From an uncultured Candidatus Saccharibacteria bacterium (GTDB lineage Bacteria > Patescibacteriota > Minisyncoccia > Portnoybacterales > UBA2143): DNA of 64,000 nt. Within the stretch, counting starts at the first letter, position 1; each line of letters starts with the position of its first letter. The notes under the pieces are model-generated. The model did no database searches. It was given only the letters and a program-made list of their open reading frames with translations, and was not told the DNA's origin. The translations under genes were made by a program, and so were the position numbers. Shown in pieces: positions 4,051 to 58,001 of this stretch. The stretch is from positions 7,528 to 71,527 of the forward strand of contig CAZKWY010000001.1 of the NCBI GenBank assembly GCA_964556655.1, written 5' to 3'.

Positions 4051-4125
4051 TGGTGCCCCCGCTAGGATTCGAACCTAGAACCAATTGCTTAAGAGGCAAC
4101 TGCTCTGCCATTGAGCTACAGGGGC
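4051..4125 (-). tRNA. tRNA-Lys (anticodon CTT), CCA encoded
   Basis: Manual cloverleaf: acceptor GCCCCTG/CGGGGGC, D-arm GCTC..GAGC, anticodon loop CTCTTAA, T-arm CTAGG-TTCGAAT-CCTAG, discriminator A, then CCA. Confidence 0.8.
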
Positions 4126-4133
4126 GAACAAGG

Positions 4134-4207
4134 CACGCCCGGAAGGACTCGAACCTCCAACCTTATGGTCCGAAGCCATACGCTCTATCCAATTGAGCTA
4201 CGGGCGC
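4134..4207 (-). tRNA. tRNA-Arg (anticodon TCG)
   Basis: Manual cloverleaf: acceptor GCGCCCG/CGGGCGT with a G-U wobble at pair 1-72, D-arm GCTC-AATTGGATA-GAGC, anticodon stem TATGG/CCATA with loop CTTCGGA, T-loop TTCGAGT. Confidence 0.75.
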
Positions 4208-6033: not shown

Positions 6034-6104
6034 CGGGATGTAGTATAACGGAAGTACGCATCCTTCGGGTGGATGTAGTCTGGGTTCGATTCCCAGCATC
6101 CCGA
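6034..6104 (+). tRNA. tRNA-Pro (anticodon CGG)
   Basis: Manual cloverleaf: acceptor CGGGATG/CATCCCG, anticodon stem CATCC/GGATG with loop TTCGGGT, T-arm CTGGG-TTCGATT-CCCAG, discriminator A. CCA is not encoded and the variable loop is short (4 nt). Confidence 0.7.
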
Positions 6105-6158
6105 CTAAGATAGTATTTTTTAAAAAAGGTCGAAAAATAAAATAAGGAGAAAAACAAT

Positions 6159-6440
6159 ATGCTTTCGAAGTTGCCCATTGACCTAAAAAAGGTTGATAAA
6201 AACAACATCGACAAAGAAATTCTAAGACTTGGCGTCATCGCAGAACTTGATGCGGTAAGTCTTTACGAACAATTGGCCGCTATGACCGAAAACGAAAAGA
6301 TTAAGAAGATTATGTTTGACGTTGCCAAAGAAGAAAAAACTCATGTAGGGGAGTTTCAAGCACTTCTTTTGCAACTTGACCAGGAGCAAACAAAAGAGCT
6401 AGAAAAAGGCAAAGAAGAAGTAGAAGAAATAACAGAATAA
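6159..6440 (+). CDS. Ferritin-like (rubrerythrin/EncFtn-like) small protein
   Basis: 93 aa. ELDAVSLYEQLAA and the EExxH motif AKEEKTHVGEF are characteristic of small ferritin-like di-iron proteins. Confidence 0.45.
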   Translation: MLSKLPIDLKKVDKNNIDKEILRLGVIAELDAVSLYEQLAAMTENEKIKKIMFDVAKEEKTHVGEFQALLLQLDQEQTKELEKGKEEVEEITE

Positions 6441-6515
6441 GCAGAGAAATGAAAAACTGCCGCAGAAAAAAAGATCTGCGGCAGTTAATGCGCTGGATAA
6501 TTAAGTTCTTAAAAA

Positions 6516-6588
6516 GGGCCAATAGCTCAGCTGGGAGAGCGCAGCATTCGCATTGCTGAGGTCGAGGGTTCGAATCCCTCTTGGTCCA
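6516..6588 (+). tRNA. tRNA-Ala (anticodon CGC)
   Basis: Manual cloverleaf with the G3:U70 alanine identity pair (acceptor GGGCCAA/TTGGTCC), anticodon stem CAGCA/TGCTG with loop TTCGCAT, T-arm GAGGG-TTCGAAT-CCCTC. Confidence 0.8.
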
Positions 6589-6604
6589 CCGAAGAATAAG
6601 TCTT

Positions 6605-13808: not shown

Positions 13809-13843
13809 ATATGCCCTAGGATGCATTGGCTTAGGCAAAAATG

Positions 13844-13914
13844 AGCGGGTAGGGGGAGTCGAACCCCCGTCATCAGGTTGGAAACCTGAGGTAATACCGT
13901 TATACAATACCCGC
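13844..13914 (-). tRNA. tRNA-Gly (anticodon TCC)
   Basis: Manual cloverleaf on the reverse strand: acceptor GCGGGTA/TACCCGC, anticodon stem TCAGG/CCTGA with loop TTTCCAA, T-arm GGGGG-TTCGACT-CCCCC, discriminator U (typical of tRNA-Gly). Confidence 0.75.
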
Positions 13915-13931
13915 TTATATTAAGATTGCTG

Positions 13932-14004
13932 TCGGGGATACCAGACTCGAACTGGTAACCTCCTGCTCCCAAAGCAGGCGCGCTAGCCATTGCGCCAATC
14001 CCCG
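13932..14004 (-). tRNA. tRNA-Pro (anticodon TGG)
   Basis: Manual cloverleaf on the reverse strand: acceptor CGGGGAT/ATCCCCG, D-arm GCGC-AATGGCTA-GCGC, anticodon stem CCTGC/GCAGG with loop TTTGGGA, T-arm ACCAG-TTCGAGT-CTGGT, discriminator A. Confidence 0.8.
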
Positions 14005-54920: not shown

Positions 54921-55931
54921 TTAAAAAAGACTGTTTTCTTCTTCTGGATAAGTTTTCTTAAGGTGGTGGTAAGCGGAAGGAGTAGTTATTCTCCCTCGGG
55001 GAGTGCGGCAAAGAAAGCCTAATTGCATAAGATACGGCTCATAGACATCCGCGATGGTGTCCGTTTCTTCATTGGAAGCTGCGGCCATGGCCTGAAGGCC
55101 TACAGGACCGCCGTTGAATTTCTCGATAATCATTTCTAAGAGGTGGCGGTCTGACGGCTCTAGTCCGAGGTGGTCTATTTCCATCATTGCTAGCGCTTCT
55201 TGGGCCGATTTTTCGTTGATTATTCCGTCTCCTTTAACTTGACTATAATCGCGGACTCTTTTTAAGAGGCGGTTGGCAACTCGCGGAGTTCGCCGAGCTG
55301 ATTGGGCGATTGTTAAAAGAGCTTTTTCGTTTTTTATTTCAACATTCAATATTTGGGCCGAGCGGGCAATAATTTTTTTAATTTCTGAAGGATCGTAAAA
55401 ATCAAGACGATAAGCGGCTCCAAAGCGGCTTCTTAAAGGGGAGGACAAGAGACCGATTCTTGTGGTGGCGCCGATGAGAGTGAAACGAGGCAGATCTAAT
55501 TGGAGGGTGCGCGCCGATGGCCCTTTGCCAATAACAATATCCAAAACAAAATCTTCCATAGCTGGATACAGGGTTTCTTCCACAGTCTTGTTTAGGCGAT
55601 GACATTCATCAATAAAAATGATGTCGCCGTTTTCCAAGTTGGTCAGAATAGAAGCCAAATCTCCGACCTTTTCAATAGCCGGCCCAGAAGTAATTTTAAT
55701 ATGGCGGCCCATTTCTTTGGCGATAATATAGGCAAGACTAGTTTTACCCAGCCCGCTTGGCCCGTGAAGCAGAGTATGGTCGATAGGCTCTCCTCTTCTT
55801 TGCGCGGCCTCTATTAAGATAGAAAGATTTTTCTTTATTTTTTCTTGGCCGATATATTCGTTAAAACTTCTAGGGCGCAAAGTGTTTTCTATGGTTTTGT
55901 CTTCGCTTTTTTTTTGCGAATTAGTAAGCAT
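54921..55931 (-). CDS. ruvB: Holliday junction branch-migration helicase RuvB
   Basis: 336 aa. Walker [12 protein letters not shown], Walker [11 protein letters not shown] and sensor GATTRIG are present. Confidence 0.9.
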
Positions 55932-55994
55932 AATTTGATTGAGGATGCTCCTCTCTCTATTGACAAAGATTTATAAATCTGTTATTATCTCAAA

Positions 55995-56318
55995 AATGGA
56001 GAAATAAAACTCCATTATTTTTAATCTTTGACAAACTGCAGGCAATAGGGCTTTTTATTTTATGAGACAGCCCGATGGGATTTCCTCTTAGTTTTCGGAT
56101 ATCCTGGCGCCTTCCACTTACTTGCTAAGAGGCATGATGATAAAACATCAAACGGTGAAAACCGCTTTTCTGTTGGCAAGTAAGTGGGAGGACAAGCTGG
56201 GTTATTCCTCGGAGCAATCTTTCTTTCTGTCCTCAGGCAGAGAGTCTTTGCCTGCAGCTTGGCAAAGATTAATTCATACGTCCCTCTTTAATATTTAAAG
56301 AGGGGTTATTTTTTCAGC
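55995..56318 (+). ncRNA. Candidate structured RNA (~300 nt) in the ruvB-pilB2 intergenic region
   Basis: A plus-strand promoter-like TTGACA-17-TATTAT lies at 55962-55990. An 18-bp stem CCUUCCACUUACUUGC/GCAAGUAAGUGGGAGG has a U-G pair that is valid only on the plus strand, and there are nested small hairpins. An intrinsic terminator CCCTCTTTAA-TATT-TAAAGAGGG followed by TTATTTTTT lies at 56282-56314. Confidence 0.3.
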
Positions 56319-58001
56319 GGCTATTTGATAAGAGCCAACCTCTCTTTCTATTTCTTCTAAGCTGGTGATGCCTTCGCTAGCCTTAAGAAGGGCGTCTTGA
56401 ATCATGAGGATCATTCCTTCTCGACGGGCCGTCCCTTGGATTTGGGAGGCAGAGGCTTTATCAATGATTAACTGTCCAATTTTGTGGCTTACTGCTAAAA
56501 ACTCAAAAACGCCAACTCTTCCTTGGTAGCCAAGGCCGTGGCAAGAAGAACAGCCTTGCGGTTGATAGAATTGTCTAGAAGGAGGGATTTTTATGCCGGC
56601 TGAAGAGGGTATGCAAGAAATAACTTTTTCAATAGCCTCCAGGCCTTTTGGCGAAGGCTGGTGTTTCTTTTTGCACTCAGGGCAGAGCTTTCTGACAAGT
56701 CTTTGGGCGATAATAAGGGTAAGCGCTGAAGCTAAAGAATCAGGCCTCGCTCCCATGCCTGTTAAACGAGGGATGGCGCCAGCCGCTTCATTAGTGTGAA
56801 GGGTGGAAAAAACAATATGGCCGGTCAGAGAAAACTGAATGGCGATGTCGGCGCTTTCTTGGTCTCTAATTTCTCCTACCATAAGAATATCCGGGTCCTG
56901 TCTGACAATAGCTCTTAGGGATTGGGCAAAAGTATGGCCGCGACGCTGGCTGATTTGGGTTTGAGTAATGCCTTCCAGTTGATATTCAATAGGATTTTCT
57001 ACAGTGATAATTTTGTTTCCTGGCTGGTTGACGTAATTTAGAAAAGAATAGAGGGTAGTTGTTTTCCCGGAGCCTGTAGGGCCGGTAGAAAGAATCATTC
57101 CATTGGGTTGGCCAATTTGCTTTTCTACCAAGGGGAGAAGCTCTTTTTTAATGCCAAGGTCGCGCAAAGAGGGTTTTACTTGTCCTATTCCCAAAAGACG
57201 CATGACAATTGTTTCTCCGTGGTTACTGGGCAAAAGAGAGACTCTTACATCTATTTCTTGCTTGATTCTGCTTGATGATTTGATGTGAATAGAAAAACGT
57301 CCGTCTTGGCTGATGTCACGGACGTTTAAAAGCATATCGGAAAGCGTTTTAATTCTGGAAAGAATAAAAAGATAATCTTTATTAGGCATATCGGCCGCTT
57401 TTTGAAGGATCCCATCAACGCGATAGCGTAATCTTGTCTTGTTTTTTTCCGGCTCTAAATGAATATCCGAAGCTTTCATCTTGAGGGCGCCTGCGATAAT
57501 AGCCGAAAGAAGTTTTGTCGTAGAAAGATGGCGGATAGTTTTTTCTAATTCTTGGATAGTAGCCAGAGATTTTTCAAGCTGGGACAATTCTTCTTTGGGG
57601 ATATTAAAAACGCCGCGGAGGGGCGCTTTTTTAGATAGAGAAGCGCTAGACTGGTAAGCAGGCCATCTTTTTTTAAGGCCGCTTAAGGAAACGACAAAAA
57701 TTTGGCACTGGAAGCCTTTGGCTTGAAGATGTTCAATAATTTTTTGGGCTTTTTTATTTTGGGGATCTGCGGCAGCAATTATTATTTTGGGGCCGCTTTT
57801 ATCAATAACAAGAACTTTTGCTTGTTTTGCTTGCTCTTCAGGAATAGTGGCCATGTCCTCCGCGTCTATTGGGGCAAGAGACAAATCAAGATAGGGCAAA
57901 TCTAATTTTTGGGCTAGCTGTTTGGCCCTGGTCTCTTCTTCTTGTTTTTTGATTTGAGCCAGTTTTTCCTCTAGTTGTTTTTTGCTCTTGAGCTCGGACA
58001 T
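56295..58001 (-). CDS. Second GspE/PilB-family secretion ATPase with a tetracysteine zinc motif
   Basis: 568 aa. It has an N-terminal T2SSE_N-like domain, Walker A GPTGSGKTTTLYSFL, Walker B in PDILMVGEIRD, and CPECKK...CSSCHG cysteines typical of PilB rather than PilT. Confidence 0.8.
   Translation of the reverse strand: MSELKSKKQLEEKLAQIKKQEEETRAKQLAQKLDLPYLDLSLAPIDAEDMATIPEEQAKQAKVLVIDKSGPKIIIAAADPQNKKAQKIIEHLQAKGFQCQIFVVSLSGLKKRWPAYQSSASLSKKAPLRGVFNIPKEELSQLEKSLATIQELEKTIRHLSTTKLLSAIIAGALKMKASDIHLEPEKNKTRLRYRVDGILQKAADMPNKDYLFILSRIKTLSDMLLNVRDISQDGRFSIHIKSSSRIKQEIDVRVSLLPSNHGETIVMRLLGIGQVKPSLRDLGIKKELLPLVEKQIGQPNGMILSTGPTGSGKTTTLYSFLNYVNQPGNKIITVENPIEYQLEGITQTQISQRRGHTFAQSLRAIVRQDPDILMVGEIRDQESADIAIQFSLTGHIVFSTLHTNEAAGAIPRLTGMGARPDSLASALTLIIAQRLVRKLCPECKKKHQPSPKGLEAIEKVISCIPSSAGIKIPPSRQFYQPQGCSSCHGLGYQGRVGVFEFLAVSHKIGQLIIDKASASQIQGTARREGMILMIQDALLKASEGITSLEEIEREVGSYQIAAEKITPL

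Follow-up and report, generated by a model that had tools for sequence, protein, structure and literature searches.

A predicted structured small RNA encoded opposite the pilB–ruvB spacer in Patescibacteria

Introduction

A large share of bacterial diversity belongs to the Patescibacteria, whose genomes are tiny and have few known regulators. To our knowledge, almost none of their non-coding RNAs have been described beyond the universal ones, and we know of no annotated 6S RNA in the group; a search of the literature found no 6S RNA for Patescibacteria either. The locus considered here lies in a 64-kb stretch of DNA, the whole of which is referred to as the window. It raises the question of what is encoded in a gap of 363 bp (55932–56294) between ruvB and a pilB-like gene, with a minus-strand gene on either side. 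A first-pass annotation had proposed that this gap holds an independent plus-strand structured non-coding RNA outside the standard families. The promoters, the covariation, the strand bias of the G–U pairs and the Rfam searches presented below support that proposal, and the remaining question is how such an RNA may act.

Genomic setting of the element

The coordinates of all features are presented in Table 1. The products of the two neighbouring genes, which had been read as lying on the minus strand and indeed do so, are RuvB and a T2SSE ATPase of the PilB type; the small-RNA gene is divergent from the former and convergent with the latter. The gene order that recurs among the loci studied is TsaE, PilB, small RNA, RuvB, an LTD/PKD protein, YebC and RuvC. 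In the compact members of the family the entire pilB–ruvB spacer is taken up by the RNA gene, and the pilB stop codon is found a few bases beyond the closing helix P1.

Concerning the other end of the gene, the ruvB start codon (CAT on the strand of the RNA) lies within the sequence TTGACAT and overlaps the −35 hexamer of the small-RNA promoter in nine relatives (L001, L002, L094, L099, L100, L102, L104, L106 and L107), whereas in the window (55929–55988) the two are separated by 29 nt. The promoter spacer is conserved (TTTTNTAATAAYTTG) and resembles a −10 element on the ruvB strand, 4–5 nt before the ATG. The ruvB mRNA may be leaderless and start from a promoter interleaved with that of the small RNA. 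In the window, the ruvB start codon is immediately preceded by a small hairpin (GAGGATGCTCCTC, 55941–55953), within which the sole Shine-Dalgarno-like GGAG of ruvB would be enclosed on the minus strand. Differences are also seen in the length of the upstream pilB-like gene, which is called at ~1000 aa with two T2SSE hits in L103, L106 and L109 (usual length ~560 aa); the product of these three genes looks like a tandem-fused double ATPase.

Table 1. Features of the pilB–ruvB locus and tRNA genes of the window
Feature	Position	Strand	Remarks
ruvB	54921–55931	−	RuvB_N, AAA_lid_4 and RuvB_C domains
Sigma-70-type promoter	55960–55988	+	−35 TTGACA (55960–55965), 17-nt spacer, −10 TATTAT (55983–55988)
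5' leader hairpin	55995–56023	+	AAUGGAG/CUCCAUU followed by a U run; terminator-like, between promoter and P1
P1, 5' strand	56021–56045	+	Inner part CUGCAGGCAA, sequence-conserved across the family
P2 hairpin	56048–56073	+	GGGCU.../...AGCCC
P3, long interrupted hairpin	56077–56221	+	Highest conservation within the family
Window-specific 87-nt insertion at the P3 tip	56109–56195	+	Gap in every other sequence
P4 hairpin	56223–56244	+	CUUUCUGUC/GGCAGAGAG
P1, 3' strand	56248–56272	+	UUGCCUGCAG...
Intrinsic terminator	Stem 56280–56306, U run to 56313	+	12-bp stem, 3-nt loop, UAUUUUUU tail
pilB-like gene (T2SSE ATPase, PilB-type)	56295–58001	−	Stop codon 56295–56297
Six tRNA genes	4051–4207, 6034–6590, 13843–14004		Lys-CUU, Arg-UCG, Pro-CGG, Ala-CGC, Gly-UCC, Pro-UGG

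Signals for transcription

The promoter of the window copy matches 11 of the 12 consensus positions and has an extended −10 element (TGn, 55980–55982), from which a transcription start at ~55995 on the plus strand is predicted. The first-pass annotation had described the same elements, TTGACA and TATTAT with a 17-nt spacer, correctly; its coordinates (55962–55990) were 2 nt off. In alignments A1 and A3 neither hexamer varies. Looking at the whole family, TTGAC(A/T/G), a spacer of 17–18 nt and TAnnnT are found on the strand of the RNA in all 20 homologues, 18–68 nt before the core, usually together with an extended −10 TGn. On the minus strand, a scan of the region found no promoter-like site.

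The leader hairpin that follows the promoter is flanked in the window by A5 and U5, a composition with which it might work bidirectionally. It is an optional part of the family: similar hairpins are present in L097, L099, L102, L104 and L106, and absent from L001, L002, L100 and L107. Such a hairpin could be an attenuator, an insulator against read-through from pilB or a 5' stabiliser; a terminator-like structure right after the promoter, as seen at six loci, one of them the window, agrees poorly with simple constitutive expression.

At the 3' end, the intrinsic terminator that had been placed over the stop codon of the pilB-like gene is found there (56280–56313, with the stop codon at 56295–56297). 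Read on the minus strand, its stem is not followed by a U run. A separate terminator of this kind is present in the window, L060, L099 and L104, while in L003, L097, L106, L109 and L037 the closing helix P1 and a directly following U run form the terminator. The only minus-strand terminator-like candidate for pilB transcripts before ruvB is a weak hairpin with a U-rich tail at 56150–56167, which lies inside the window-specific insertion of P3.

Secondary structure and the insertion in P3

The plus strand folds at −131.8 kcal/mol, compared with −81.0 ± 5.2 kcal/mol for dinucleotide shuffles (z = −9.8), and none of 100 shuffles was as good; the fold of the minus strand is also good (z = −7.5). 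The whole structure is enclosed by the closing helix P1, which was missing from the first-pass annotation. As an inverted repeat P1 is 25 nt long and 92% complementary; it comprises 23 bp in the window and from 11 to ~30 bp in the family, with up to ~30 bp in L102. In its inner part, CUGYAGGCAA/UUGCCURCAG (CTGYAGGCAA...TTGCCTRCAG in the DNA), both the sequence and the pairing are conserved across the family.

P1 encloses the hairpins P2, P3 and P4, and the four helices together make a four-way junction. P2 is predicted as a hairpin in all 16 sequences of the main alignment, and the sequence of its stem is different in almost every homologue. P3 contains invariant A–U and G–C pairs, fixed G–U wobbles, a U-rich bulge and a AUUCCUCGGA segment. 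No P2 is placed by the model alignment for members of the Sungbacteria type, whose P4 seems expanded by eye. A possible LexA/SOS box in P2 was also considered and rejected: the GAAC...GTTC motifs of L001–L003 are spaced 14–20 nt apart and other stems are found elsewhere, and a literature search on LexA and the SOS response found nothing relevant to the P2 box.

The helix that is most visible in the window is not part of this conserved core. The first-pass annotation had centred on an 18-bp stem with a single U–G wobble and on hairpins nested in it, and all of these are present: CCUUCCACUUACUUGC (56110–56125) pairs with GCAAGUAAGUGGGAGG (56176–56191), the stem being longer in the minimum-energy fold, and the nested hairpins are located at 56135–56150 and 56153–56164. 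They belong to an insertion of 87 nt which folds alone at −42.6 kcal/mol and has no counterpart at any of the 19 distinct related loci. The P3 tip of the relatives is a UCCG, UUCG or UUUG tetraloop (UNCG-type), with ~20 extra nt in L007. Since the relatives have a tetraloop where the window has 87 nt, the 18-bp stem and its nested hairpins are a lineage-specific expansion of the P3 tip. Without the insertion, the core of the window copy is an RNA of 169 nt, similar to its relatives. The earlier description of a ~300-nt structured RNA headed by the 18-bp stem thus stands as regards a structured RNA and a real stem, but the conserved size is ~170–200 nt and the stem lies outside the conserved core. 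In a single sequence, the helix that catches the eye most can turn out to be an expansion segment that is dispensable.

Distribution across Patescibacteria

Almost all relatives of the element were located via RuvB as an anchor, so the strict synteny reported here is partly a sampling effect. A protein encoded on a 94-kb NCBI/Logan contig matches the RuvB of the window with 100% identity, and this RuvB occurs in the Logan assembly SRR7048225; its nearest relatives (67–77% identity) carry Patescibacteria, Parcubacteria or Portnoybacteria labels. Homologues of the element are found in the pilB–ruvB spacer of 20 distinct loci, namely the window and 19 others, not counting duplicate contigs. The host genomes are of the Parcubacteria/Portnoybacteria type, Moranbacteria and the Sungbacteria/Minisyncoccia type. 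The element is present upstream of ruvB in the GTDB genomes L001–L004, L007 and L060, as well as in every contig fetched via RuvB homologues. The first-pass proposal was to be judged by conservation in relatives; the element is conserved, with a promoter of its own at every one of the 20 distinct loci. A scan of metagenomes with a 22-base degenerate pattern of P3 gave 15 loci, of which three (L091, L093 and L094) are true homologues and the remainder are chance matches.

A covariance model, R1, was built from 16 distinct sequences with P1 trimmed; its calibration was shortened and its E-values are rough. Copies of the element score 69–155 bits with R1 (114.5 bits for the window copy), and the divergent Sungbacteria/Minisyncoccia-type loci L112–L114 and L031 score 30–36 bits. 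L037, which was assigned by eye, shares the promoter type, the P1 ends and the U run with the family, around a diverged interior. No homologue was detected by R1 at ~60 ruvB loci outside Patescibacteria (Chloroflexota, Bacillota and others). Within Patescibacteria, the element is absent from the corresponding site in genomes where ruvB lies directly after another gene, L012 and L036 being examples.

The genes pilB and ruvB run in the same direction, and the small-RNA gene occupies the strand opposite their spacer in the window and at 18 of the 19 further distinct loci. The exception is L031 (2900–3052): compared with its closest relatives, L112–L114, it carries the entire gene and the promoter in the reverse orientation (29.9 vs 7.0 bits by strand); this single case, on a 4-kb MAG contig, could be a real inversion or a misassembly. 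The copy of L008 (3651–3783; Moranbacteria GW2011_GWF2_35_54) lacks ~33 nt covering the P1 5' strand and P2, and retains the promoter, P3, P4 and the P1 3' strand; it is either decaying or affected by an assembly error.

The long terminal inverted repeats would suit a MITE, a REP-like palindrome or another mobile or repeated element. Such an origin is hardly credible: BLAST and the covariance model found one copy and no second one within the 64-kb window, the syntenic position is constant across class-level divergence, and the element lacks target-site duplications and further copies and is equipped with a promoter and terminator of its own.

Covariation and coding strand

The main test of covariation was carried out on a MAFFT alignment of 16 sequences, with column shuffles and pairing partners slid by 1–3 columns as controls. 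Standard pairs occupy 93.9% of the cells, compared with 85.5 ± 0.6% in the shuffles and 40–53% in the slid controls. Double changes are found in 30 of the 54 pairs, compared with 14.5 ± 2.4 in the shuffles and 8–16 in the slid controls, and none of 500 shuffles reached the observed values. The covariation that had been proposed as a check on the syntenic regions upstream of ruvB is therefore strong. Looking at each helix separately, 16 of the 22 pairs of helix 1 (P1) have double changes and 95% of its cells are paired; for helix 5 (P4) the double changes affect 5 to 7 of 9 pairs. In an alignment of 20 sequences that includes the divergent clade, 94.2% of the cells are paired and 22 of 43 pairs are double-changed, though this alignment was fitted to the model and leans to its structure. 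Four pairs of P3 (60–180, 61–179, 68–178 and 78–168) are invariant in all 20 sequences, and several G–U wobbles are fixed in 17–19 of the 20.

The wobble pairs also indicate the strand. The stems contain 210 G–U or U–G pairs vs 15 A–C or C–A pairs, and only 71% of the cells pair when the reverse strand is read, vs 94% on the plus strand. This asymmetry, together with the direction of the promoter and of the U runs, identifies a plus-strand RNA, antisense to ruvB and pilB, and rules out a strand-symmetric DNA palindrome as well as a minus-strand ruvB leader. A structured 5' leader of ruvB would profit from the good fold of the minus strand and from the position of the element directly upstream of ruvB; we give it a negligible probability, since 71% of the conserved pairs are standard on its strand vs 94% on the other, the conserved promoter and U-run terminators point the opposite way, and a minus-strand promoter-like site was not found in the region. 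We also regard as very improbable a role at the level of DNA or as a pure terminator, in which the element would be an operator palindrome of ruvB or a bidirectional terminator or insulator and the RNA fold would have no function. In the inner P1, conservation extends to the sequence as well as the pairing, and P1 with its U run forms the terminator at several loci, both of which such a role would explain. Palindromes are strand-symmetric, however, whereas the wobble counts favour one RNA strand; a dedicated promoter is kept in all 20 loci, and the covariation of P2–P4 is unnecessary for a terminator or an operator.

Concerning coding potential, two candidates for a small-protein gene were rejected. 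A 58-aa plus-strand ORF (56122–56298) lies mostly in the non-conserved insertion. At the base of P3, an AUG gives way to AUA or UUG in L002, L094, L107 and L003, and indels break the frame.

Comparison with known RNA families

A search of the whole 64-kb window with Rfam 15 at gathering thresholds detected only the six tRNAs, which lie elsewhere. Lowering the threshold to E ≤ 10 for the window copy, the insertion-free L102 and the divergent L037 gave weak, chance-like matches to eukaryotic or unrelated families; 6S, SRP, RNase P and tmRNA were not among these sub-threshold matches. The Rfam 6S models in particular gave no match even at E ≤ 10 in regions of 551 nt and 261 nt (the window copy and the insertion-free relative). 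ARAGORN found no tRNA or tmRNA at the locus and only ordinary tRNAs elsewhere in the window. The earlier reading by eye, that the RNA could not be placed with RNase P, tmRNA, SRP or 6S, is thus borne out by the Rfam scans. Full-text literature searches on non-coding RNAs of Patescibacteria/CPR, on 6S RNA and on ruvB found no description of the small RNA.

The locus has the features by which a stand-alone small-RNA gene is generally recognised: a promoter, a terminator, a covarying structure and no conserved ORF. We consider it very probable that the locus is a genuine small-RNA gene and represents a new family. The family is an orphan, as none of the 4227 families of Rfam 15 matched, within a known kind, the stand-alone structured small RNAs of bacteria.

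A scan of viral contigs with the P1 ends detected a ~140-bp phage inverted repeat with nested palindromes in L110 (8943–9083) and L111 (3306–3446) of IMG/VR. It shares the ends CTGTAGGCAA...TTGCCTACAG and lies between the gene of a DUF5906 protein and a parB gene. We rejected it as a homologue: it is an unrelated palindrome whose ends are alike by chance, and it may be an origin- or parS-like site.

The closest known classes differ in how much they share with the new family. The raiA motif RNA and OLE RNA are orphan structured non-coding RNA classes of bacteria found by comparative genomics. Like them, the present RNA was found by covariation, has its own promoter and terminator, consists of a multi-helix junction with conserved internal loops and is restricted to one lineage. 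Unlike them, it has Patescibacteria as hosts and a strictly conserved pilB–ruvB position; neither its sequence nor its structure matches those families in Rfam 15, and it is smaller than OLE RNA. Concerning SRP RNA (4.5S), there is no Rfam hit, and the GNRA-closed domain IV with its symmetric and asymmetric loops differs from the only long hairpin here, which has a UNCG-type loop accepting insertions of 20–87 nt. RNase P RNA, tmRNA and tRNA gave no Rfam or ARAGORN match at the locus.

Discussion

The question posed by the locus can now be narrowed to the way in which the RNA works. We consider it slightly favoured, at a probability of roughly 55%, that the region from 55995 to ~56313 on the plus strand is the gene of a stable structured small RNA of an uncatalogued Patescibacteria (CPR) family that acts via its fold, likely with a protein. 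As read from the sequence, the near-consensus sigma-70 promoter with its extended −10 would drive the gene from ~55995, the ends of the transcript would pair as P1 and close the P2–P3–P4 four-way junction, and transcription would stop at the intrinsic terminator at ~56313 or, in several relatives, at P1 and its U run. The RNA would then work by its fold, and its most likely role is that of an RNA partner to a protein; long antisense pairing would probably not be its mode of action.

Four observations point to action through the fold. The conserved nucleotides are found in helices, bulges and fixed G–U wobbles, and no conserved single-stranded seed stands out; the hairpin tips, which would be solvent-exposed, are free to vary and accept insertions of 20–87 nt; both ends of the RNA are locked in P1; and the whole gene is inverted in one relative (L031). 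For the narrower claim that the RNA acts in trans, through its fold and with a protein, we see an even chance.

The main rival is that the RNA is a cis-encoded antisense RNA on co-transcribed pilB and ruvB. GadY, a cis-encoded antisense RNA located between gadX and gadW, is the known example of this type, and the likeness is clear: here too the gene lies opposite the spacer of two co-directional genes and would be fully complementary to any transcript reading through it. Perfect pairing with the intercistronic RNA would lead to processing, or the convergent promoter would block read-through, and the expression of ruvB would be set independently of pilB. Much in the architecture of the locus agrees with such a role: the small-RNA gene, read from the opposite strand, takes up the spacer at 19 of the 20 distinct loci, the pilB-like gene is without a minus-strand U-run terminator beside its stop codon, the terminator of the small RNA overlaps the 3' end of pilB, and, because the ruvB start codon lies within the −35 hexamer in nine relatives, the transcription of ruvB must cross or abut the small-RNA promoter. 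An antisense RNA has no need of a conserved fold, however, yet strong covariation and fixed G–U wobbles are found, and a helix of 20–30 bp keeps both ends sequestered. The inversion in L031 would make the RNA sense to the spacer, and the co-transcription of pilB and ruvB is itself presumed. The elaborate covarying fold with its sequestered ends, the conservation at class level and the one inverted genome also set the RNA apart from GadY. On balance we regard the antisense reading as unlikely, and prefer a stable RNA that acts through its fold.

A second rival takes the RNA as the Patescibacteria counterpart of 6S RNA (ssrS; RF00013 and related models), which sequesters RNA polymerase. The RNA would imitate an open promoter, with P1 and P3 as the duplex arms and the junction region as the bubble; it would bind to the sigma-70 holoenzyme until the synthesis of a short product RNA released it. 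Both are stand-alone RNAs that are strongly transcribed (here as judged by the very strong promoter) and plausibly protein-bound, and the size of ~170–200 nt is suitable. The two also share a long closing helix made of the 5' and 3' ends, with a long interrupted stem opposite, which here is the apical stem P3. Some described 6S RNAs carry hairpins in the bubble strands, which also speaks for this rival. The open single-stranded central bubble of 6S RNA is replaced here, however, by the stable, covarying hairpins P2 and P4, and what is conserved is the bulged P3 helix with its fixed G–U wobbles and the sequence of the inner P1. Covariance models reveal no similarity, either at the gathering threshold or at the permissive one. 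The variation of P2 and P4 in the Sungbacteria-type members is unexpected for a conserved promoter mimic, and the tight synteny with pilB and ruvB is atypical of 6S genes. A 6S counterpart is improbable in our view, more so than an antisense RNA. Because the bubble is replaced by covarying hairpins and the 6S models give no signal, we do not file the small RNA as 6S; 6S RNA is its nearest functional analogy and not a family assignment, and a specifically 6S-like activity is doubtful.

The fold-based reading with a protein partner has a wider form, which we hold tentatively, at somewhat less than even odds: the RNA would be an undescribed abundant RNA widespread in Patescibacteria and a subunit or regulator of a protein machine, and its pilB–ruvB position would reflect an ancient gene order and not antisense action. 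If this is true, the RNA could be a structurally distinct stand-in for 6S RNA or, equally, the partner of a lineage-specific protein. Its role is probably central, because it occupies a whole spacer in streamlined genomes, keeps its promoter in all 20 loci and has a fold that covaries across class-level groups, which together indicate strong selection. The covariance model offers a handle for mapping the distribution of the family, the proteins that co-occur with it and its expression in existing groundwater metatranscriptomes.
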